Positions 18,701-47,788 of a stretch of DNA of 64,000 bases are shown here, one piece after another (the stretch's first letter is position 1; the number at the start of each line of letters is the position of its first letter). Location: the NCBI GenBank assembly GCA_051294905.1, contig CM119372.1:17610001-17674000 (forward strand). The letters are read 5' to 3'. Both the position numbers and the translations under genes were made by a program. Below the pieces are notes generated by a model. The model worked only from the letters and a program-made list of their open reading frames with translations. It made no database searches and was not told the origin of the DNA. Source of the stretch: Botryllus schlosseri. Its lineage: Eukaryota.

Positions 18701-21700
18701 TGCAGACGATACAAGAAAGTGATTGTCAGACTATGACAGTCGAGGACTCATTTGTACAAACTGATGTAAGTTGAAGACAATTGTGAGTGCTTAGGCGCAC
18801 GCGACGAAATATAGTTACCTTAGCTAGGCGATGTAAATATAATATTTACAACCAGAATAGCACGATATATCAAGAAAAGTTCTTATGAACCACTACGATT
18901 TCCGACGATACAATAAGGTTTATCTCAATTCGCTGTGTAATTTCCTTCCTTTCTGTACCCTGATGTAGCGATTCTATAGTGGCAGGATGTTAAAAGTCAA
19001 GGAATTTTAATAAAAATTGTTGGGATAACAGTAAAATCCTGATATTTCACAAACAGCTGTCAGGGTAGAACGCGAACCCCTGCATTACTGCACTACGAAT
19101 ACGAATGTGAACCGAACCTTCGCAACATCCTTATATCATATACTTCTGCTTCCATTCAGACACTAATTCAACCATTAAATTCGTAAATTAAATTCGTTTC
19201 GTAAGTTTTCGACAGCATCGATTGCAAATATCTCAAACGACATCAGAGATAACGTTAAACTCCAATCTTACGACGACTCGAGTGAAGTCCTACTTCGAAA
19301 CTACAATCAGCAGCTTCGCCTGATAATTGATAAGCACTCTCCACCGATCACGAAATCAATTGTCTTGCGCTGCTCACCCTGGTTTAGCAATGACATCAGG
19401 ACCGCGAAAAGACTGCGGAGAAAACTTGAACGTAAGTGGAGAGCTTCTAAACTAGTCGTACATAGACAGATGTACCAAGAACAATGCACTCGGGTGATCA
19501 GAATGATAGTCAAAGCAAAATCTAGCTACTACAACAACTTGATAATGGAATGCAAGGATAACAAGAAGAAACTTTTCAGCGTAACGAAGAACCTCCTCGC
19601 AGAATCGAGCTCGGTCAAACTACCATCGAATCATCCATCGTCACTAAGTCTGGCAAACTCATTTAACACGTTTTTCTGTGACAAGGTGGGCTCTATCAGA
19701 CAATTTTTGCTTGCTCAGCAAGGCAACCGACACCGATCAGAAGGACAAACAAACGATGAAAATTTCAACGGTGCCGGTCTGGATAATCTATCGCCTACTA
19801 ATGTTGACGAGATTAAAGAGCTCATATCTGGTACACGAACAAAGACATGCGATCTTGATCCTATACCAACTTGGATTCTCAAGGAATGTTTCTCCGACTT
19901 GGCGATTCTGGTCGTCGAAATCATAAATCGGTCGCTGTTAGACGGCGTGGTACCGCAATGCTTTAAGCGAGCTGTGGTGACCCCACTCCTGAAGAAGAAC
20001 ACTCTGGACCCCGATCTGATGCAAAACTATCGACCGATATCGCAGCTTCCGCATCTCTCAAAGCTTCTGGAAAAGGTTGTCGCCAAACGTATTGTGGACC
20101 ATGTGACCGAGTACGATCTTCACGACATGAATCAGTCGGCATATCGTGCCGGACACTCGACTGAAACAGCAACGTTACGCGTCCACAATGACATTGCTTC
20201 TGCCCTCGACAACGGAAACATGGTCGCTCTGATCATGCTGGATCTCTCCGCTGCCTTCAATGTAATCGACCACGTTCTATTGGTGGAACGGCTCCATCAT
20301 GTATTCGGAATCTCCGGCGTGGCATTAGAATGGGTAAAATCTTATTTGAAAGATTGAATGCAGTGCGTATCTGTGGGCGGTGTCCGTTCGTCAGAGATTC
20401 AAATCGAATCAGGCGTACCACAGGGTTCTGTTCTCGGCCCATTGCTCTACCTCATGTACACGAAGCCAGTCGGAGATATTTGCCGTCGCCATGGTTTCTT
20501 CCACCATTGCTACGCGGATGATACACAGGTCTACGGTCTTATGAGAAATAGCAATGAATGGGAGAGCGTGTCATCCAAGTTACAGCGATGTCTTATTGAT
20601 ATTGAGCTCTGGATGACACAAAATCTTCTCAAGTTAAACAAAGAGAAAACTGAACTCATCATTTTTACGCCAACCAGACGCCCCATCGACCACAATCAAT
20701 TCACCATCAGATTCGGACCAGACACCATCCAAGGCAAGACCTGTGTACGTAACCTAGGTATTCACTTTGACGGCATGCTCTCAATGGAAAAACATATCGA
20801 CTATACATCAAAGATCTGTTTCATGTATATCCACAAGATCAGTCGAATCAGGAACTACCTATCTGAGGATGCATGCAAAGCCATAATACTGTCGCTGGTG
20901 ATATCACGGCTTGACTATGGAAATGCTCTGCTTTACGGGGTAAACCAAAATTGCATCGACAAGCTACAAAAGATCCAAAACATCGCTGCTCGTTTGATAA
21001 CTCGGTCAAGGAAGCGTGATCACGTAACACCGATTCTTAGATCCCTTCATTGGTTACCCGTGAAATTTAGGTCTGAATACAAGCTTCTTCTGTACGTCTT
21101 CAAATGCATGGAGGGAAGTGCACCAGCGTATCTTCGTGAGCTAGTGACAATGTATAATCCCGGAAGAGCGCTACGTTCTCAGTCGCAAAAGCTCTTGTCC
21201 GTTCCAAGAGTCAGAACATCGACCTATACGGCGAGAGAATCTTTTCTTCCTCGGCCGCCATTCTGTGGAACAATCTTCCAATTTCTATCAGACTATGTGA
21301 CTCGCTATATGTTTTCAAACGCAAAATCAAGACCGTTTTATTCACACGAGCGTTCGAGCTAGAGTAGTGTTCATTCCGCCCTACAACTATGCGCTTCGTC
21401 TTTTATACATATCCTTTACTTTTATATTTTATTGCCTTTTATGTACAGCGCCCTAGTGTAGTAATGATATATTGTTATATTCGGCGCTCTATAAATTATT
21501 ATATTATTATTAGTATTATTATAAATTCAACCAGCAATTGCACCCAGACTTAAGATTACGATGTTTACCGTGAGACGAAGCTGTTTACAAGTATTATGGG
21601 TTTATCGGTGGTGCGAGCGTGCATCGGACAACACAGGCTCGCCGCGTGGTATTAATAGTACCTGGTCGCTCGCCCAATAAATACACTAATAATGCTTGTA

Positions 21701-24700
21701 TTCGTCTCATGGTGACAAATATCCGATATTGAATAAGAAAGAGAGAAAGAATCTTTATTCGTATACATTAGATATAGACATTACACTACAAAAATGTAAC
21801 AGTGAAATGCGACATGCAAGGTAGACGGGAGGCTCGATATGACAAAGTCTTCAGAGCCGAGCCACCCAGGACAGGAGCCATTTTCACAGTCGATAGCTCA
21901 TAAATAAAAATAAAATAAAATAAACTAACGATCGAAAAGAAAAACAAGACACAGTATCATAGACCAATTCGAAATACAATGCAAATACAATTTAGCGGTA
22001 GTTAGAGATAAGAGAATGAAAACATTGCTCTTTAAGATCACAAGAGTCTAAATTACGGAGATAAGTTACGAATGTTACACAACCACATTATAGTTTCGTT
22101 GCAACAGATGATCCGAATATCTTGCATAAGGGAAGAAGACATTCAGCTTCTGAAGTTAAACATTTCAACTGAAGAATTGCGGTCAGGCCGATATCGCGAA
22201 GACCATGATCACGAGGTTGGCATCGTATGGAATAGTGCAAGTTAATGAGTGTAGTATGATGGCTCATGTTGAACAATATGCTGGTGTGTTTGCTGAATTC
22301 TATAAATGCGAATTTATGACCTATGACTAGTCTAGATTGGTTAAATCACTTCATTTTTGACAGCCATGTAGGATGAAATTTGTTGGAGTTACATCAAGCT
22401 GTGGTGGAGATGTAATTCTAACTTGCTCCTGTTCCCATCTCGCAAGCACGTCGACTCAAAGCCCGGTTACTATTTCTATCGGCGTTAACACGGTTAGCGA
22501 AGAATGGTAAGCGACCTAATATATTTGATGTCGATATAAAGCTACACGACCTAAGATCGTATAGTAATTAACGATCATATTTGATAACGAAATCTTCGAA
22601 ATATAAAAGTGAATGCTGTGACCAGGATTCGAACCTGGGTTATCACGGCCACAGCGTGAGGTACTAACCACTATACGATCACAGCGCTTTCGTAGCAGAG
22701 GATGGTTTCGATCCATCGACCTCTGGGTTATGAGCCCAGCACGCTTCCGCTGCGCCACTCTGCTGACACTGTAAACGCCTTCCTTACATTCAGTTCCAAT
22801 CAGTACTACACGTCGTGTAACTAATAATGGATGAATATCCCTGTAACTAATTTCGTAGCCTATTCTGTCAGATAAACGCGATTATCACGCCCTTGACAAA
22901 ACGTGATAAGATGTGTTAAATTTAGTTGAGCCTCCTGTCTCATAAAAACGAAAAACGCATTCCCTGTAGTCAGTTAATACATTTAATTCAGGATTGTTGA
23001 ATACAATTTAATGGTACTCGCCGACGCTGAATAGATTTCTTCCTTATCCCATAAGTAACAACTCTACTTTTGACCCATCGACACGCCCGTGATATGTTGG
23101 TCTATGCAGCATGGATTCGACGTTGGGATATTTTGAGCACATGAGCCTCGAGAAATGCCATAGAGACCTCAAGCAAGAGCATGAAAATCTCACCTCAAAG
23201 TACGAAGACATCGGCAAAATCAAAGAAGAATTTGGCGTTGAGCTGAAATCCGCGAAAGAAGAAATTGTCGCGTTGCAAAAGACGATTCAAGATTTCCAAG
23301 TAAGAACACAGGAAACGATTTTCCATCATGATCACCGAATACCCCTGGACTGGATATGTCGTCTCATTTGCCGACAAAAAATGAGGGTATCCAACCAAAA
23401 GTTCGGATACTTCTGTGTATGCGGTATGGGCGCTGTCAGGGTAATGCTTCTGAATTTTCTGGAATCGAGATGCGATATAAAACACATCGCCATTCCCGAT
23501 GTACAGGAGTCAACCTAACTAGGCAGAGTCGGAATCGCAATTTCAATCCAAAGTCGGAGTTGTCACATAGGAGCCACAGCACTTCAATTTTCAATTGAAT
23601 TCTTCAGACTCACCTCTGGGTGTGCGTGAGTATATGGAATACTTCGTCAGAACTTCATACGGTCAATATTTTCCCAATCGTATGAGATATTGTCACCAGA
23701 GTCACACCAGCAAACTCGATCGTTCCTTGATGGCGCCATCGTAATAGTTTGCAATATATATGCAAAAACTACAAAGTATAAATAGTCTCAATGAAGTAAA
23801 CTTATTGGCATAACTGTTCATTATTAGAATAAAGAGTACGAAAAGGAGCTCGAAGAAGATATGCTCAGAAGACATGAAAACTACAGCGTTGACGTTCAGG
23901 ACACGAATGAATCTCTGGGAGAGTGGGACTGTACTATCCAGCGCGTGGTGAATAGTGCATTGGGCCCAAAACGAGGGAAAAGTCTTTTGCCGATTTTGGC
24001 ACCAAAAGGTGGTAAAAGGTATTACATGTATATTGCATAATCTCGTTACACGTGCTTCGGTGCTTCAGATAATGCTGTGGTCCTCGATCTATGGTATACG
24101 CGTGCCACTATAGTGAGATGTCGGTATTTCTCTCACTACCGTTAATTCTGTTAACATACGCTGGCATTTCGCTAAACTGCATCGTCAATTTCTTTCTGCC
24201 TGGCGAGTGTACTAGCATGACGAAGTTTGTTACGTTATTATTACGCAGCAATTGATTCCTGCGATCTATAGTGCATATTTGTTCAAAATGGTCCAAGCAC
24301 TGCTACTAAGGGGGGGGGGGGGGGCTATTAGGTGCCATGACATACCCAGGCTTATCCAGTTTAGGCTAACATGCGACGCCGTAAAGTGAGGTGTGCAAAC
24401 CTGCCAATACTACCTGAACTCAAAACACCGGCTCTATAAACGTTGGCGCAAATGATCACAGCATATGCTGACGGAATCCCTCAATCTCTATAATATTCTG
24501 GCGCCGCAATTGCTGTGAATGAGACCAAAAACTCGGCTACCAATAATATAATTAATGTAATTACATGAGCTTATACAATATGGTTCCGCAAATGTGATGT
24601 AGTTTGGTGTTGTTATTATTATTGTTGTTTTTGTTTATTATTTCCTTTTATCAGATCGACCTCATACCCGGGACCCATCGTGGGTTGCAAATGTCAGATG

Positions 24701-28240: not shown

Positions 28241-29888
28241 TTACTGCAGTAAGAACAATATGGGCGGATATCACGATCTGATCAATAGAAATCCGATTTG
28301 TACCAAATAGCCAATGGTTTGTAGTTAGATATTGGAGCACTCGTTTCCAGTCCATCCGGTGTCGATCATGTTTATCGGAATATAATATTTTTCCGTTGAA
28401 ACGAATCGAATAATCGAATTAAACACTGCGCCATGCAGATTGCGCCGTGCCCGTAACGAAACTATGCACATTTACAAGTCACAGTGCGCGATAATTCGGG
28501 AATACTAGAGTATCCAGCAGACATCAAGAATGAATACACGAAACAGATGATTGCAAATTGGAAATCGCGTATCAAATCAGTTTGTCTCCAACATGAAATA
28601 CCATCGGGTTCTGACATCGCATTGAGCAGCTGGCACGCGACAATTGTTTGCTGAGTGTAAGGGCGTTTTGAGCTACTCTTCTGCCATCCCTATTTACGCT
28701 CGAAAATCCTTATTGGAGTGAATGACAATCATGCGCAGTAATGAATTACAAGTCGCATGCACAGCTGCATACACAATAACACTGTCCAATTTCGTGGCCC
28801 GATTGAAAAACTATCACGTAAGAACGAGTATTTGCTTATCCGATTCAGAGCAACGATGAGATGGAATTTCTCGGCGCGTGCTCGTCATATCGACATGCGC
28901 AACGAATTCACGTTTTTATTCTCTGTCCCATTTCGCGTAATACATAGTGATCATTATTTGCGAACCGTGCAATTGGCCAGCAATGTCGCGTTGATGATTA
29001 AATTGCGGGTATTCCGAATACCCACAATATTCACAGGCATATCTAGCATACCGAGGTTCGGCGCTCATGTATGAAAATTGAACATTGAACATATGACTGC
29101 TCTGCTGTTAAATCCCCAGCAACGTGGTTAGTCGGAAAAGGTAGCGCCAAAGAGGCAAATTTACTTCATTTCGCGAAGGCCTGCTGTTGAATTATGTGAA
29201 ATGGAATAACACCATGCTTCAACAAAGCGATTATATGACAATTGACCCGCCTGACTCTCACCCTCGGGAAACTCGTGAATAGTCTTACCGTATGACATGA
29301 AGATACAGCTCTCTGAAGAAACCGCTTTTATCAGCCCTACCGGTATATCTGATGATGATAACTAGGGCGATTTTTTACCTAAAAAACGGAAGATTTTGAC
29401 CTGAAATAACTAAATTTTGACTTTTTTTTACCTAAAAAAAATGAATTCTGACCAAATTTTGACCTCACGTATGCAAATTAGGTGTTTTTGCACATAATGT
29501 TAAAATTGTACTACTTATCTTCATTTCTGGCTGGAACTGTCTGTCTTTACGAAGTAGTTTGGCCTGAAAAAACGTTTTTGGCTCAAAAACTGACAAATTT
29601 TTACATGAAAAAACTAGTATTTTAACTGAAGAGTTCCAGTAGTTACATCACGTATTATGGTAGAAATAATTAAAATTTGTTGTAGTACAACGAAAGATAC
29701 TTTCTACATTCTCGGGTAGAAAGTGTCTGTCCTTACTGAGTAGCTTGCCAAGAATGGAGAAAGAACGTTCAACAGCAGCAATGCTATCTACATCACAATT
29801 TTTCAGCTTGCGCTTCTTGATATAAAAACCATGCAATGCCCAAGCAGTCTTGCTTCAGATAGGATATTGCGGTACGTCGACCATAAAA

Positions 29889-31040
29889 CAGGGGCGGGCA
29901 ACATACGGCACGCGGGCCGAATCCGGCCGCGATTTTGTCCTGCCCGCGGACAGTTTCCCGTCTTACATGATAATGTGACCGCGGCCCCAGTCTGCCGAGA
30001 TTCCCCACTACTTTCTTAAACGTCAAATTTTAGTCACTGTATGTCATTATATACGTGTGTGCGAAGCGTGCGAGTGCAGAGCTTACGCGTAAGTTCGTCG
30101 AAGCGAGAAGACTTGAATCAATATCGGCATTTACCATGTACTCAACCCTAATGAATTGATATCTTGGTAAATTTGGGGTACCGGGCTTATCGAACGCCTT
30201 GGAATCTTAACTAAGGATTGCGCCATGGTGTGGACACAAGCACGCACGCGGCTCAGTGAAATTGGTCTGCGTCACACTTTCCATTTGGCTAAATGCAATT
30301 TGATGGTGATTTTTGACCGGCTTGCCGAGCATTAAATTTGATAAAACTGGTATCAATCGAAAGCTACCGCGGTACTGATTGCGAAAATATAAATTTTATT
30401 CTGCTCGCGGCAAAGGAACCCCCCAAAATCGGCCCCGAATGTTACATTGTAACGGAGATTGGTGTTGTGACGCAACCATGCCGTCTGAGCATCTCAAGCG
30501 CAAGTGCGCACGAGAGTTGCGCAACAATGCCCAATACGCTTCCGGTTTGCGCTGCTCTCACTTGCTCCCAGACGGCATCGTTGCGTCACAATACCAAATT
30601 CCGTTACAATGCAACATTCGAGGCTGATTTTGGGGGGTTCCAGGGCCACGAGCAGAATAAAATTTACATTTGCACAATCAGTACCGCGGTAGCTTTCGAT
30701 TGATACCGGTGTTATCAAATTTCGCGCTCGGCAAGCCGGTCACTATAGGACGCTATGATTACACCGTGTGTTAAATGTTAATTGATCAGAGAGAAGCAAA
30801 CATGGCGGGGCCTGTATGACAATGCTGTTCTCAAATCCAGATTGTCTTCGTTATTACCGACGAGAAATGGCTTTGAAGTGACATTGCTGTCGTTAAAATA
30901 CATTCAATAAATACGATTTATTCTGTGTATATGTGTATAAAAGGGCGAATAATGTATCGATTCAGCAATCCGGCCCGTCAAGTAGGCCTACTCAATTTTC
31001 CTATATCCGGCCCGCCGACTGAAGAAGTTGCCCGCCCCTG
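29889..31040. mobile_element. Nested hAT-type MITE
   Basis: TIR CAGGGGCGGGCAAC/GTTGCCCGCCCCTG; perfect TSD CCATAAAA. Confidence 0.92.
30314..30742. mobile_element. Palindromic MITE, innermost nested element
   Basis: TGACCGGCTTGCCGAGC...GCTCGGCAAGCCGGTCA with ~175-bp imperfect inverted arms. Confidence 0.85.
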
Positions 31041-31799
31041 CCATAAAACCATTTCAATCTATTTGTTTCATCTGACCGTTTATGATTCACAATGAGCAGA
31101 CAATGGGCCGTTTACAACCGTAGGCCTATAAAGCTACAAGCTGTAAAATATCAAATGATAAGTTCACCGACAGTGCAAAATCTACAATACAAACGAAATG
31201 CAGAGGTCAAACATTTTTTGACTTTGTAAACAATTTTGACAAATTTTGACCTAACGCCACAATTTTGACAAAATTTTAACAAATTCTGACATGTCAAAAA
31301 ATCGCCCTAATGATAACGTATATGCAATACGCAAGTAACAATACTATTGACCAATTTCATTCATTACCTTTCAAAAATTTTCGCGTTTTGCGTGGAAGTT
31401 ATGCCACGTCCTTGGCCATATGAACTCGTTACGTCACAATGAGTCATTTTCGTCGCGTCTGGTAAAAATATCGCCTCCCACCCGGTCACACGTACAATGT
31501 TCAGACGCGGCGCCACTCGTGCATAGATTTATTCTTTGTTAACCTATATTCCCACTTCATGATGACGTTATACACTCGTATTAGTGAAAAAGTGAGAATT
31601 CCGCGAGCGGTGTCGCGTCTGAACTCTGAATATTGCACGTGTGACCCCGCCCTTTACTTTTCACCGCTTCGCTTACGTCACGCATCCTGGATAGAAATGC
31701 TGGGTACTGGGTATGCAGTATCGATACGACAGAACCGCAGAAAGATGCTAGAATTAGAATGATTAAAATTAAATGTCATTGTTTGTTACATGTTGTGAG

Positions 31800-32978: not shown

Positions 32979-34242
32979 CAGAGGTGGTCAAAGTAGTCAA
33001 GAAAGCTACTCAAGTAGAAGTAGAAGTAGCGACGAAAAAAATCCACTCAAGTACGAGTAGAAGTACTGCTTCCATGAACCACCTAAAACTACTTGAAGTA
33101 GAAGCAGAATTGACTGACTTTAAATCTACTCAAGTAAGTAAGTACGGTAGTTGTGAAAACATCACATGGCTTGTCAAAAGGTGCAAATTGAGCTATGCGA
33201 AAGGTGTCGAGCTTGATTCATATTGATACATACCAGGAGGTATCCACTTTTCGACAGTATAAGCATTCGTCCGCATCATGGAATGAAAATGATAGTATTG
33301 ATATGGAAATGCGATACTAATCCTCTGTTTTCTCGAACAGCACGTTTTAGAAAATATCATAGTATGACGCCCTCCCCATATTATAAGGCTCGTAGTTTAG
33401 TCGAATAGCGATACAGAGCAGTTGTATCGGATACGGTGTAAGCACTTTGCGCGATTAGTAAACGTTAATAAAAATATGGTGGACCGTGAAAATGTCATAT
33501 TGTGTAGCTTTATTTCCGGAAATTAAAGGCATTTCTACACTTGCTTTTATACTTCAACATGTATGTTATCCAGACAAGAGAGTTGATATTAATCAGAAGT
33601 CAAAGTATATAATACTGGGAATTGAAAGTGAAATGCACATACCGGTACTACTTCTAAAAGCGGAACATATATTTAATGTCTTTAGTCCAGAAAGTTTCAA
33701 AGGATGGTATACTAATACTAGTAATACAGCTCAAAAACTGAAAAAAGTCAGAGTCCACCTACCAGATTAGGTTAGGACACGCTATGAACATCAGTTTCAA
33801 ACGTTAAGATGAACCATATATACTGCGAGGAATTATTTCATATGGGCGAAGGGCGACAATGTGGTGTGAACGGAACCACGCCATCCCGCTACCTAAATTA
33901 TATTCATCTATACTTTTGTGAAATGATACTGGTTACTCTGTATCCACTGCGCGCGAAGCGCGACGAAAATTCTGGGCTTTATTCAACTTTTATGAAAATT
34001 AAATGTTGATACTCCGTTAAAACAGCCCCTAAATTCCTCAGGCTATCTTCCTGATTGGAAGATTGAACTACTTCTACTTGACAAACTGAAAATAGCGGAA
34101 AGTAGGTAAGTACATCACAAAATATTACGAAGTACAAGTAGAAGCAGCGAAAATCAGGTCTACTTGAGTAAGTACCAGAAGTAGAGGAAAATTACTTGAG
34201 TACTTCGAAAAAGTAGAAGTACTTCGTTACTGACCACCTCTG
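32979..34242 (+). mobile_element. ~1.3-kb hAT-type non-autonomous element, family CAGAGGTGGTCA, copy 1
   Basis: 12-bp TIR, AAGTAG subterminal repeats, perfect TSD TATATATC. Confidence 0.93.
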
Positions 34243-34303: not shown

Positions 34304-34375
34304 AGCAGAGTGGCGCAGCGGAAGCGTGCTGGGCTCATAACCCAGAGGTCGATGGATCGAAACCATCCTCTGCTA
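34304..34375 (+). tRNA. Initiator tRNA-Met (CAT)
   Basis: Same 72-nt sequence as 22693-22764. Confidence 0.97.
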
Positions 34376-34382
34376 CAGAGGC

Positions 34383-34454
34383 GCTGTGATCGTATAGTGG
34401 TTAGTACCTCACGTTGTGGCCGTGATAACCCAGGTTCGAATCCTGGTCACAGCA
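34383..34454 (+). tRNA. tRNA-His (GTG)
   Basis: Cloverleaf with anticodon loop TTGTGGC; differs from the other copy only at loop position 32; T5 run follows at ~34459-34463. Confidence 0.95.
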
Positions 34455-34496
34455 GTACTTTTTATATAACGATATATCGTTGCCAAATATAATCAC

Positions 34497-35323
34497 TAGG
34501 GCGATTATTTTTTGACCTAAAAAAGTTCATTTTTTGACCTTAAAAATCTTGATTTTGACCTAAGGTATGCAAATTAGGTGTTTTCCCACATAATGTCAGA
34601 ATAGTACTAAATATCTTCATTTCTGGTTGGAACCGTATGTCCTTACGAAGTAGTTTGGCCTGAAAAAAAAACTTTTTTTGCCTCAAAAACTGACAAATTT
34701 TTACATGAAAAACTTCATTTTAACGAAATCTGGCCCTATGAAGAATTCCAGTTGTTACATGACGCATTATGGTAGGAATAATTTTTAAAAAAATTGTAGT
34801 ACAACGAAAGATGCTTTCCTACATTCTCGAGTAGAAAGTGTTTGTCCTTACTAAGTAACCTGTCAAAAATGGAGAAAGAACGTTCAACAGCAGCAGTTGT
34901 CGGCTGACAACACTGAAGTTGTGTGTACACTGCTGATGACAAACCGTGTTGCTTCCGGCAATGGTTTCTACATCACAATTTTTCATAATGCGCTTCTTGA
35001 TATAAGAACCATGCAATGCCTACGCAGTCTTCTTTAGTTGGGATATTGCGGCCCGTTGAGCATAACACCATGTCAACCTATTTGTTTCATTTGACCGTTT
35101 ATGATTCACAATAACCAGACGATGGGCAGTCTACAACGACAGGCCTGTAAAGTAAGCTACAAACTGTAAAATGTCAAATGACAGGGCAAAATCTACGATA
35201 CAAACGAAATGCAGGTTGCAAAAAAGTTTTAACTTTGTACAAAATTTGACATTTTTTGACCTAACGCTACAATTTTGAACCTAATTTTGACTTTTTCTCG
35301 ACATGTCAAAAAAAATCACCTTA
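34497..35323 (-). mobile_element. Uninterrupted copy of the TAGGGCGAT hAT derivative
   Basis: Colinear with 29363-31309 minus the nested inserts; PTTAAVERSFS remnant; TSD ATAATCAC/ATGATCAC. Confidence 0.88.
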
Positions 35324-35536: not shown

Positions 35537-36814
35537 CAGAGGTGGTCAGTAACGAAGTACTTATACTTTTTCGAAGTACTCAAGTAGTTTGCCTCTACTT
35601 CTGGCACTTACTCAAGTAGATCGAATTTTCGCTACTTCTAGTTCGTAATATTCTGTGATCTACTCACTTACTTTTCGCTATTTTCAGTTTGTCAAGTAGA
35701 AATAGTATAATCATCCAATTCGAAAGAGAGATTGAGGAATTTCGGGGCTGTTTTCATGGAGTACTAACATATAATTTTCATAAAAGTTAAGTAAAGCCCA
35801 GAATTTTCATCGCGCTTCGCGCAAAGTAGATATGGAGTGACAAGTATGTTTTCACGAAAGTATTGGAGAAGAGGCTACAATTTACGTAGCGGTAGCGTGG
35901 CTCGCTTTACTCCCACCGTATTGTCGTCCATATGAAATAGTTCATCACAGTAAATATGGCCCATCATAACGTTTAAAACTAGTAGTTTCACAATCTAGCA
36001 TTTACCACAATCATATCGTGATCTAGCAGCCCAGCATGGCGTGTCCTAATCTGGAGAAGTGGTATCTGACTTTTTGAGCGTCAGACCTATTTTAGCAGAC
36101 CACTGTTGAAGCTATCTGGACAAGAGACATGGAACACATTTTCTTCTTTTAATTCACAGTATCATTAGTTTGAGTTCTAATGAGTTTCAGTTCCTTTGTC
36201 TGGATCTGCATGGGGAACTTACATGTTGAAGTTTAAAAGCTAGTGTAATAATGCCTCCATTTTCCGAAAATATAATTTCACTGTAGTATGGCATTTTACG
36301 ATCCGTCATATTTTTTATTACCGTATACTGATCTCGCAAAGTCTTAACACCGTATCCGATACAGCTTCTTGGTATTGCTCTTCGATTAAACTATGGACCT
36401 TATAATATGGGGGAGGGCGCCGAGGACGTTTTCTAAGACGTGGTGTTTGGGTAAACAAAGATTAGCGTCCATAGCGATTTCCATAGCGATACTATGATTT
36501 GCATCCCATGATGCAGACGAATGCTTATGCTCTCGAAAATTGATACCTCATGTGATGCATCAATATGCTCAAGCTCTCTGAACCCTCCGTATAGCTCAAT
36601 TTGCAACTTTTGACAGTACATGCGAACGTATTATGACCGTTTTCAAAACTACTTACTTACTTGAGTAGATTTTATGCCAGGAAATTCTACTTCTACTTCA
36701 AGCAGTTTTAGGTTGCTTTTGAAAAAAGTACTTCTACTTGTACTTGAGTAGATTTTCGCGCCGCTACTTCTACTTCTACTTGAGTAGCCTTCTTGACTAC
36801 TTTGACTACCTCTG
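35537..36814 (-). mobile_element. Family CAGAGGTGGTCA, copy 2
   Basis: Inverted orientation; perfect TSD CTGAGTAT. Confidence 0.93.
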
Positions 36815-46009: not shown

Positions 46010-47788
46010 TCATGGAAGTTTATTATAAACCTCTGTCATGACGAAGTGGTGACATTCCGAGCTCTTTGTCACTAGAATTTCGCTTCTAACGGTGTCTTTG
46101 AGAAATTTCGTTGTGAGTCGCTCGAAGTTAATGATTTTCAGAAGTGAAAGCATATGACGCCTTCTTAGATCCGGATCATACCTCACCCATTTCATCACAG
46201 CTATCCAGGTGGCTTCGCCATGGACGTTTCGCTTACGCAGTATTTTTCCCAGCAGCTGAAGTTCTTCGAAAGTGATATTTGCGAATTCCGGGTGCTCGAT
46301 TACTTTCAAGAAATTAGTTACGAAAAACGATACCAATTCCTTGTCGACTCTCGCGAAAGCTGTGTTTTTATACTTTCGCGATAAATACTTGAGAGTAAAG
46401 CATGTGTCGACGGTGGTGTTCCAGATAATGTGTCTGGGATCTTTAAACACGACGTCCGAAATGTATTTCACAGAGTCCGCAGACGACCGTACCGCTTTCA
46501 CTTTCAGAATTGAGCAAATAACAAATTTTGGCGAAAAGTCCTCCATATGTAATACTTTCAAAACATCCAGGAAATCCGCTTCGCGGTCTTTGTCAGCCTG
46601 CAGCCAGGTCAGCGCGGTGTCCCACATGTCCGATTCCTCCAAGAGTGAGCAATCGCATGTGTTAAAGAACAGGCAGAATTCGTCAAGTCTCCACGATTCT
46701 ATTTCCGGCCTCGTTTTTATTTGCTTCAAGTGGGCTGACATGAATCCAACTACTGTTTTCAAATATCTATCGTAGAATTCCGTACAGAAAGTCGTCACTA
46801 TGCTGAAGATGTTTAGACAATTCCGAATGTTCAAGCTTGCCTTCACTTCTCCGATATTGGTCAGCACTTTTGCTGCAATAAATTCCTTGACCGATGTATT
46901 TTCAGATACCATTACTTCGTTCCAAACGGTTGTAGATAGGAAATTGATGGTAAAACGCGTAACTTTAATGAATCTTAACAGCTCCAAAAACTCTGTGACC
47001 CTTTGCGAGGGATCGTGCGATACCCAGCTGACCACACCCTTCCATAAGAGAGAATCTTTGGGTTTGAGTTCACGCTTATCAATTTGGACTTTCGTCATGG
47101 GGGATTTGCAGCTTTTAGCAGAGCCTATCAGGGACCTGGACTTACTTGAAAGAAAAATTCTCGGGGTGTGGGTCGCCGAACGCAGCTCACGAGCCGGCGC
47201 GGAACTGCCACGCTGTGTGCTCCGCCACATTTTCAAAAAATATTTCATATCCTGTTTTTGCAACTCCTTGAAAGTGTCCGTTTCGACTACTTCATCCATT
47301 TTATCAACAATAAACCGGTCCACCGTTTCTCTGAATTTCCTGTTTTCGAAGATCACTACCATGTTCCGTATGTTCAGGCAATTTGATGGAGTTAAATTGT
47401 TTCTGATGAAATCGTAACATAGATCCATTAAGGCTTCAATCCGAAACAGATCAGCTGCATTCAAAATCGATTCCATATTTGAAATCGAAATGTCGGCTTC
47501 GCCGGAGTACATGAACCGAATGCATTGTTCCATAGCGTCTGGTGACACCCCGTTGATATATATTACACCTTGATCAATACCCTCTGCTAAAATGGATCGG
47601 AAGTACTCCGAGCACGCCGCAAGGACGGCTTTATGAGCCGGAAATGATGACTTGCCGATGTTGATCAAAAAGTCGCAGACAATGTTCGACTTTAGGAGAT
47701 CCTCCAGGTTCGACATCATTTGCAGGCTGTGTGTGATCTTACATTCTTCTTCTTTTTGCAGCATGATTAATACCCACCAACTAATCAC
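46010..47788 (-). CDS. BTB/POZ protein with tandem BACK-like repeats and no Kelch repeats, single coding exon (true start probably the ATG at 47764 or ~47719)
   Basis: CDFLINIGKSSFPAHKAVLAACSEYFRS..FMYSG..AADLFRI (BTB). The NCL..F..L / W..V..W...D...R / L..I pattern recurs three times. The ORF ends without GG..Y..W Kelch motifs. Confidence 0.85.
   Translation of the reverse strand: MISWWVLIMLQKEEECKITHSLQMMSNLEDLLKSNIVCDFLINIGKSSFPAHKAVLAACSEYFRSILAEGIDQGVIYINGVSPDAMEQCIRFMYSGEADISISNMESILNAADLFRIEALMDLCYDFIRNNLTPSNCLNIRNMVVIFENRKFRETVDRFIVDKMDEVVETDTFKELQKQDMKYFLKMWRSTQRGSSAPARELRSATHTPRIFLSSKSRSLIGSAKSCKSPMTKVQIDKRELKPKDSLLWKGVVSWVSHDPSQRVTEFLELLRFIKVTRFTINFLSTTVWNEVMVSENTSVKEFIAAKVLTNIGEVKASLNIRNCLNIFSIVTTFCTEFYDRYLKTVVGFMSAHLKQIKTRPEIESWRLDEFCLFFNTCDCSLLEESDMWDTALTWLQADKDREADFLDVLKVLHMEDFSPKFVICSILKVKAVRSSADSVKYISDVVFKDPRHIIWNTTVDTCFTLKYLSRKYKNTAFARVDKELVSFFVTNFLKVIEHPEFANITFEELQLLGKILRKRNVHGEATWIAVMKWVRYDPDLRRRHMLSLLKIINFERLTTKFLKDTVRSEILVTKSSECHHFVMTEVYNKLP

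Follow-up and report, generated by a model that had tools for sequence, protein, structure and literature searches.

Anatomy of the tRNA gene pair

The window analyzed here is a stretch of 64,000 nucleotides (C2:17610001-17674000) from an assembly of 495.5 Mb in 219 contigs. It contains an initiator tRNA-Met (iMet) gene that is followed on the same strand by a tRNA-His (GTG) gene, with a spacer of seven nucleotides between them (hereafter dimer A; Table 1). Both genes were called by ARAGORN, and both scored well above the gathering score of the Rfam tRNA family RF00005 (29 bits). No run of four or more T residues (T4) was found across the 151 nt of the two genes and the spacer (34304-34454). 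The earliest such run is the T5 run behind tRNA-His, which is presumed to be the Pol III terminator. The genes, the spacer and the position of the oligo-T run only behind tRNA-His agree exactly with the original prediction.

The Met gene of dimer A carries the anticodon CAT, an A1:U72 pair and, at the bottom of the anticodon stem, three G:C pairs (GGG/CCC); its T loop has A54 and A60. These features are the marks of eukaryotic cytoplasmic initiators, and on this basis we take the gene to be one of them. A distinct elongator-type Met (eMet) gene is also present in the genome. The tRNA-His gene has the discriminator A73 and a C at position -1. In dimer A only, the spacer is predicted to pair with the 3' acceptor strand of iMet in a 6-bp hairpin. 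Since the spacer of dimer B (see below) and other spacers show no such pairing, the hairpin is probably incidental. When the 168-nt putative precursor was folded at minimum free energy (z = -1.59), no double cloverleaf resulted, as is usual for naked tRNA sequences.

A second iMet-His copy, which was absent from the original prediction, lies 11.5 kb from dimer A in the inverted orientation (hereafter dimer B; Table 1). Alignment of the two tRNA-His genes showed that their single difference is a C for T at anticodon-loop position 32 in dimer B; this C32 variant is also encoded by some of the copies on C8 described below. The base at -1 is C, as in dimer A. The two dimers are 94% identical over 175 gap-free nt, and the similarity of their flanks is patchy. 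Dimers A and B are therefore the products of an old local inverted duplication.

Table 1. Features of the two tRNA dimers and of their surroundings in the window
Feature	Position	Strand	Basis and remarks
Initiator tRNA-Met (CAT), upstream (leader) member of dimer A	34304..34375	+	ARAGORN; Rfam RF00005, 62.8 bits
Spacer of dimer A, CAGAGGC (7 nt)	34376..34382	+	Read from the sequence; T-run absent
tRNA-His (GTG), downstream member of dimer A	34383..34454	+	ARAGORN; Rfam RF00005, 61.7 bits
T5 run, presumed Pol III terminator of dimer A	34459..34463	+	Sequence; 5 nt behind tRNA-His
Spacer/acceptor hairpin of dimer A	34368..34381		Predicted fold
Initiator tRNA-Met, dimer B	22693..22764	-	ARAGORN, Rfam; 0 mismatches to dimer A
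Spacer of dimer B, CGAAAGC (7 nt)	22686..22692	-	Sequence
tRNA-His (GTG), dimer B	22614..22685	-	ARAGORN, Rfam; one difference from dimer A
T4 run, dimer B	22605..22608	-	Sequence; 6 nt behind tRNA-His
Inverted arms enclosing dimer A	32979..34242 and 35537..36814		About 1.26 kb; 76-92% complementary in pieces
Second repeat family, direct copies	34552..35247 and 29456..31236		82-91% identical
Two adjoining open frames with reverse-transcriptase halves	19179..21362	+	LINE-like element, frame broken
BTB/BACK protein gene, single frame	46010..47788	-	592 aa

The surroundings of the two dimers are rich in repeats. Dimer A is enclosed by two long inverted arms, the left of which stops 62 nt 5' of iMet. 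The arm repeat is very abundant in the genome: a first look gave 3076 candidates, and among the 40 that were scored the copy of the window itself matched at 100% and the other 39 at 93-95%. Dimer A may be part of a single foldback-type element, or the two arms may be separate insertions on either side of it. A second repeat family begins about 100 nt behind dimer A, and a broken LINE-like element lies near dimer B. The window also carries a single-frame BTB/BACK protein gene (Table 1). Elsewhere in the genome, a GT2 exon scored above the Pfam cellulose-synthase cut-off (26.3-28 bits), which makes it likely that the animal is a tunicate.

Recurrence and conservation of the pair

A DNA search of the genome with the 151-nt iMet-His unit recovered 25 full-length copies on five chromosomes: two on C2, three on C3, 17 on C8, two on C11 and one on C15. 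The copies on C8 form in part a tandem array with a period of about 2.1 kb. The spacer is 5 nt long in 22 of the 25 units, 6 nt in one and 7 nt in the two window copies; ten distinct spacer sequences occur among the units, with the length held to 5-7 nt. T4 was not found inside the unit at any of the 25 loci. Behind tRNA-His, a T4-T6 run begins after 4-8 nt in 23 units, both window copies included, and no T4 was found in the 40 nt behind tRNA-His in the other two. Since the same genes occur in the same order, 5-7 nt apart, at 25 places, the arrangement is far beyond chance. The architecture from which a dicistronic unit had been predicted is therefore real, recurrent and conserved, while its transcription as one precursor is a matter of analogy, to which we return below.

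Among eight representative loci, the mean pairwise identity was 0.98 for iMet and 0.99 for tRNA-His, and that of the 60-nt flanks was 0.54-0.58, close to what unrelated sequences score with this aligner. The loci on the five chromosomes fall into at least six flank families. From this contrast between the gene bodies and the flanks, both genes and the short terminator-free junction have persisted while the surrounding DNA diverged, and selection or homogenization acts on both tRNA halves and not on the flanks.

The multiplicity of the pair, its spread over five chromosomes and the fact that the similarity between locus families starts and stops at the unit are what would be expected if the pair were the head of a tRNA-derived SINE or of some other retroposed family of Pol III transcripts. 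The original prediction had named a high-copy degenerate SINE as the finding that would overturn it. The present data contradict this explanation, which we regard as hardly tenable. The copy number is only 25, and both halves are full cloverleaf genes of about 62 bits. In addition, no common body or tail follows the T-run: homology ends at the gene borders, and the 60 nt downstream of the unit are at the background level (0.58). Within families, namely the C2 copies A and B, the C3 copies and the C8 array, the flanks are shared, so that these copies arose by duplication at the DNA level.

The two halves of the unit have not decayed equally. Relative to the window copy, the 25 dimers carry 65 differences in tRNA-His and 14 in iMet; an exact match to the window copy was found for iMet in 15 of 25 dimers and for tRNA-His in six. 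The decay of tRNA-His is found mostly in the 17-copy C8 array, where 2-nt insertions and a 7-nt deletion occur and a single copy carries 15 differences. Judging from these decayed halves, some of the C8 units would function at most as iMet genes, with tRNA-His as a dead passenger. An intact iMet gene with a ruined tRNA-His gene is common on C8, and the converse, a ruined iMet gene with an intact tRNA-His gene, was found in none of the 25 units. This asymmetry fits a leader that is indispensable and a trailer that is not; it fits simple redundancy of tRNA-His genes equally well.

The defects in the C8 array raise the question of whether the window copies themselves might be silent or in decay, as duplicates in a region rich in transposons, with the working members elsewhere and the layout devoid of present function. 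The position of dimer A between the arms of a high-copy repeat, and of dimer B close to LINE reverse-transcriptase frames, would be in keeping with such a fate. The iMet gene, however, is perfect (0 mismatches) in both window copies, the two tRNA-His genes differ at loop position 32 only, and the T-run 5-6 nt behind tRNA-His is kept in both. Moreover, the eight dimers outside C8 are clean, with three differences in iMet and four in tRNA-His in total, despite flanks at the background level. We therefore consider it quite improbable that the window copies are decaying duplicates.

Initiator and histidine tRNA genes in and outside the pairs

An exact-pattern census found 49 iMet genes in the genome at three or fewer mismatches, 34 of which are exact. 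Twenty-five of the 49 head a tRNA-His gene, 16 head an eMet gene and eight are solo (seven on C14 and one on C6), so that 41 of 49 initiator genes reside in dimers. Fourteen of the iMet-eMet units are complete dimers with spacers of 5-6 nt; two more have a 12-nt gap and a truncated eMet gene. An iMet-eMet array at C15:16979372-17008887 comprises 13 units, arranged as head-to-head pairs with a T4 behind the second gene, and one more unit is located at C4:20237192. Six of the solo iMet genes on C14 were read, and five of them have a run of four or more T residues within 14 nt of the 3' end. Because these solo genes have their own terminator, the absence of a terminator behind iMet appears to be specific to the dimers.

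In the search for tRNA-His genes, 61 candidates were found, and among the 40 that were scored, 23 are in dimers and 17 are elsewhere. At least 17 matches to tRNA-His thus occur without iMet: 14 on C1 and one each on C14, C10 and C6. ARAGORN assigned His (GTG) to 14 of these 17, and no tRNA was found directly upstream of any of the 14. The genes at C1:22.34-22.50 Mb and those on C10 and C6 share a conserved upstream element of about 90 nt, the last part of which, right before position +1, consists of a 6-bp hairpin and a hexamer of fixed sequence. Several members of the lone tRNA-His array are degenerate, and ARAGORN labels them Asn, Arg, Pyl or '???'. The possibility that the lone tRNA-His genes are dimers with a decayed iMet gene was considered and rejected: a relaxed cmscan (E up to 10) found no tRNA-like match upstream of these genes, and local alignment of the upstream element with iMet was no better than that of shuffled sequences (mean z of 0.45 at 16 loci).

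According to the original prediction, the pair would couple the supply of the initiator tRNA to that of tRNA-His. The census lends no support to this idea. The supply of tRNA-His does not depend solely on the dimers, since at least 17 of the 40 scored matches occur without iMet, and iMet in turn heads 16 iMet-eMet units and is solo at eight places. In addition, unrelated pairs are built in the same way, as described in the next section.

Other short-spacer tRNA pairs

Two generic junction patterns, each consisting of a B-box consensus, 19-28 nt and an A-box consensus, were searched against the genome, with the reversed pattern as the control. Pattern 1 gave 23 matches, against none in the reversed control, and 17 of these were of one form by eye. 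All seven matches of this form that were fetched proved to be Ser(GCT)-Ala dimers by ARAGORN, in which the Ala anticodon is CGC and in one case TGC. Counted from the tRNA ends the gap is 2-4 nt (the ARAGORN calls lie 1-2 nt apart), and a T-run follows the Ala gene. There are at least 17 such junctions; the fetched dimers are on C5, C6, C8 and C9.

Pattern 2 gave 65 matches, against one in the reversed control, and 64 were of one form. All ten that were fetched proved to be Ile(AAT)-Phe(GAA) dimers by ARAGORN, with a gap of 5-9 nt counted from the tRNA ends (the ARAGORN calls lie 4-8 nt apart). Within a few nucleotides behind the Phe gene there is a run of three to eight T residues, which is T4 or longer in seven of the ten. 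At least 64 Ile-Phe junctions are present. The fetched dimers are on C1, C2, C4, C5, C8, C9, C11, C12, C13 and C14, and a large tandem array lies at C12 26.00-26.16 Mb. Three matches outside the main forms of the two patterns were also fetched, and none of them is a tRNA dimer.

The genome contains 66 Phe(GAA) genes, 58 of which coincide with an Ile-Phe junction of pattern 2. Three of the remaining eight were read: one is truly solo, one lies behind a degenerate Ile gene (C1:8063706) and one behind a truncated Ile relic (C9:19381713), the Phe gene being intact in the latter two. Since tRNA-Phe is indispensable and 58 of the 66 Phe genes are located at Ile-Phe junctions, the downstream members of dimers of this type must, on this gene count, be expressed.

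The iMet-His pair thus belongs to a class of tRNA dimers with short spacers that is found throughout the genome. The class comprises four pair types (iMet-His, iMet-eMet, Ser(GCT)-Ala and Ile(AAT)-Phe) with a total of at least 120 units, and it houses most of the initiator and Phe genes of the animal. Given the iMet-eMet units, the lone tRNA-His genes, and the Ser-Ala and Ile-Phe pairs, the pairing appears to be a general feature of how genes are arranged in this genome rather than a device specific to iMet and tRNA-His.

It is worth noting that close spacing of tRNA genes in this genome does not by itself imply a dimer. The notion that all close tRNA genes here are dimers was rejected on the basis of a sample of 30 loci, in which ARAGORN made 64 calls, most of them Lys-TTT and Ala-TGC, and the nearest neighbors are 81 nt apart. 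Among the distinct non-paired combinations of gene and trailer that were sampled, 40 of 43 have their own T4 within 60 nt. A dense array at C3:34.488-34.508 Mb contains at least 45 tRNA-Lys(TTT) genes on the same strand. The gaps in this array alternate between 81-88 and 125 nt, and nearly all of the genes have their own T4 about 22-24 nt behind the gene.

Probable transcription and processing of the pairs

Pol III requires a T-run for termination, and in the iMet-His unit there is none before the end of tRNA-His. The spacer of 5-7 nt leaves no room for TFIIIB to serve the tRNA-His gene outside the body of iMet. The A/T content upstream of iMet, on the other hand, reaches its peak of 0.75 at -30 to -21, compared with 0.35 at -10 to -1 (eight loci). 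In the fungal dimers that have been studied, the A and B boxes of the upstream gene drive both products (PMC2566860). The features of a dimeric tRNA gene of the yeast type, namely a short spacer, a terminator only behind the second gene and recurrence within the genome, were all found here. On these grounds, each iMet-His pair is probably one Pol III transcription unit led by iMet.

In such a unit, TFIIIC would bind to the A and B boxes within the leading iMet gene, and TFIIIB would sit about 30 nt 5' of that gene, where the DNA is richer in A/T. Pol III would start a few bases 5' of iMet, pass through the 5-7-nt spacer, which has no T-run, and stop at the T4-T6 run 4-8 nt behind tRNA-His. In the resulting dimeric precursor, RNase P would generate the 5' ends of both tRNAs by cleavage, and the 3' ends would be formed by tRNase Z, by a 3' exonuclease or by both, with CCA being added afterwards. 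Our models for joint transcription, for its dependence on the promoter of the upstream gene and for the manner of processing are the Ser-Met dimer of S. pombe and the Arg-Asp dimer of S. cerevisiae.

One further step would concern tRNA-His only. Over the 25 units, the templated base at -1 of tRNA-His is G, C or T. Because this base varies, we propose that G-1 would be added by Thg1. A profile search of the genome found a Thg1 gene on C6 (PF04446, 131.5 bits). With the GTG anticodon, A73, a G-1 that is not consistently templated and a Thg1 gene in the genome, the tRNA-His of the dimers has the features expected of a substrate for Thg1 maturation. The C at -1 in both window copies is likewise consistent with the Thg1-type addition that was proposed originally.

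There is another possible interpretation of the layout. The two genes may merely adjoin each other and be started independently, in which case TFIIIC would bind to the boxes of tRNA-His, TFIIIB would be placed over the body of iMet and Pol III would start within iMet, while transcripts from the iMet gene would simply read through tRNA-His as a long trailer. The A and B boxes of each tRNA-His gene are indeed intact, and tRNA-His of dimer A is 100% identical to lone tRNA-His genes on C1, C10 and C14, so that it possesses the same internal promoter. The intact Phe genes behind the degenerate Ile gene at C1:8063706 and the truncated one at C9:19381713 would also be compatible with autonomy of the downstream gene. 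In the iMet-His unit, however, Pol III would have to start, and TFIIIB to bind, within a G+C-rich gene that is occupied by TFIIIC, and a penalty in vivo is described for TFIIIB placed over an upstream gene rich in G+C (PMC2566860). The same paper describes the downstream gene of the S. pombe dimer as not independently initiated. Independent starts would also leave two regularities unexplained: the constancy of the 5-7-nt spacer across old loci with diverged flanks, and the absence of a terminator behind iMet in 25 of 25 units, as against its presence behind five of six solo iMet genes. We therefore regard independent starts as unlikely and favor a single transcription unit led by iMet.

Comparison with known dicistronic genes and implications

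The textbook account of animal tRNA genes makes each of them a strictly single-gene Pol III unit, and it treats dimeric tRNA genes as a fungal curiosity. In the open-access literature that was searched, dimeric tRNA genes are described from fungi only, and heterologous units from plants and Yarrowia. For tunicates, as for other animals, this literature yielded nothing on nuclear tRNA-tRNA dimers; older or closed papers may exist.

The closest known counterpart is the Ser-Met dimer of S. pombe. Its expression depends on the A and B boxes of the upstream gene and proceeds through a dimeric precursor (PMC2566860), and an involvement of RNase MRP is reported (PMC4234475). The S. pombe unit resembles the iMet-His pair in having two complete genes about 7 nt apart, a terminator only behind the second gene, and an initiator as one of the partners. 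The roles, however, are exchanged: the initiator is the downstream, dependent gene in S. pombe and the upstream leader here. Furthermore, S. pombe is a fungus with few such loci, whereas the present genome is of the animal type and has 25 iMet-His and 16 iMet-eMet loci. Co-transcription has been demonstrated in S. pombe; here it is proposed by analogy.

The tRNA-Arg/tRNA-Asp dimer of S. cerevisiae and the tandem tRNA genes of hemiascomycetes are also similar, with short spacers, a terminator behind the second gene and pair types that recur at different loci and in different genomes; the hemiascomycete spacers go down to 3 nt, and there are, for example, 17 such tandems in Debaryomyces hansenii (PMC2566860). 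In the S. cerevisiae dimer, the 3' exonuclease Rex1 is reported to help trim the upstream member (PMC2615624). The present dimers differ from these in their pair types (iMet-His, iMet-eMet, Ser-Ala and Ile-Phe), in their number of at least 120 units and in their non-fungal host.

Heterologous dicistronic Pol III genes are known as tRNA-snoRNA genes in plants and as tRNA-5S rRNA and tRNA-RUF70 genes in Yarrowia lipolytica. In these genes a leader tRNA provides the promoter for a downstream RNA across a gap of 4-7 nt with one terminator (PMC2566860), a layout that the present units share and a mode of expression that they would share. They differ in that the downstream partner here is another tRNA, with an internal promoter of its own. 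In Yarrowia, 48 of 108 5S genes, about half of the family, are supplied through leader tRNA genes (PMC2566860); in the present genome, the share that resides in dimers is 41 of 49 for iMet and at least 58 of 66 for Phe.

The iMet-His pair is thus a known kind of gene, in pair types for which we found no earlier report from an animal. Within its own genome the single locus is ordinary, and the notable part is the genome-wide habit of pairing. As to the wider reading, that in this ascidian-type lineage dicistronic Pol III genes would be a principal means of encoding several tRNAs, with the upstream gene as the shared promoter, the case for and the case against it seem to us evenly balanced. If it is true, entire isoacceptor families would, for the first time in a metazoan, be made as a rule from dimeric pre-tRNAs, and an initiator tRNA would for the first time be seen to serve as the leader instead of the trailer.

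Such loci would be misjudged by tRNA gene annotation and by expression predictors built on the assumption that every tRNA gene has a promoter and a terminator of its own. If the pairs are co-transcribed, they would provide a natural system in Metazoa for studying how RNase P, tRNase Z and 3' exonucleases act on spacers of 2-8 nt. They would also offer one for the dosage linkage of paired tRNAs and for the origin and spread of such units. The animal itself would then rely on the cleavage of dimeric precursors for basic components of its translation.
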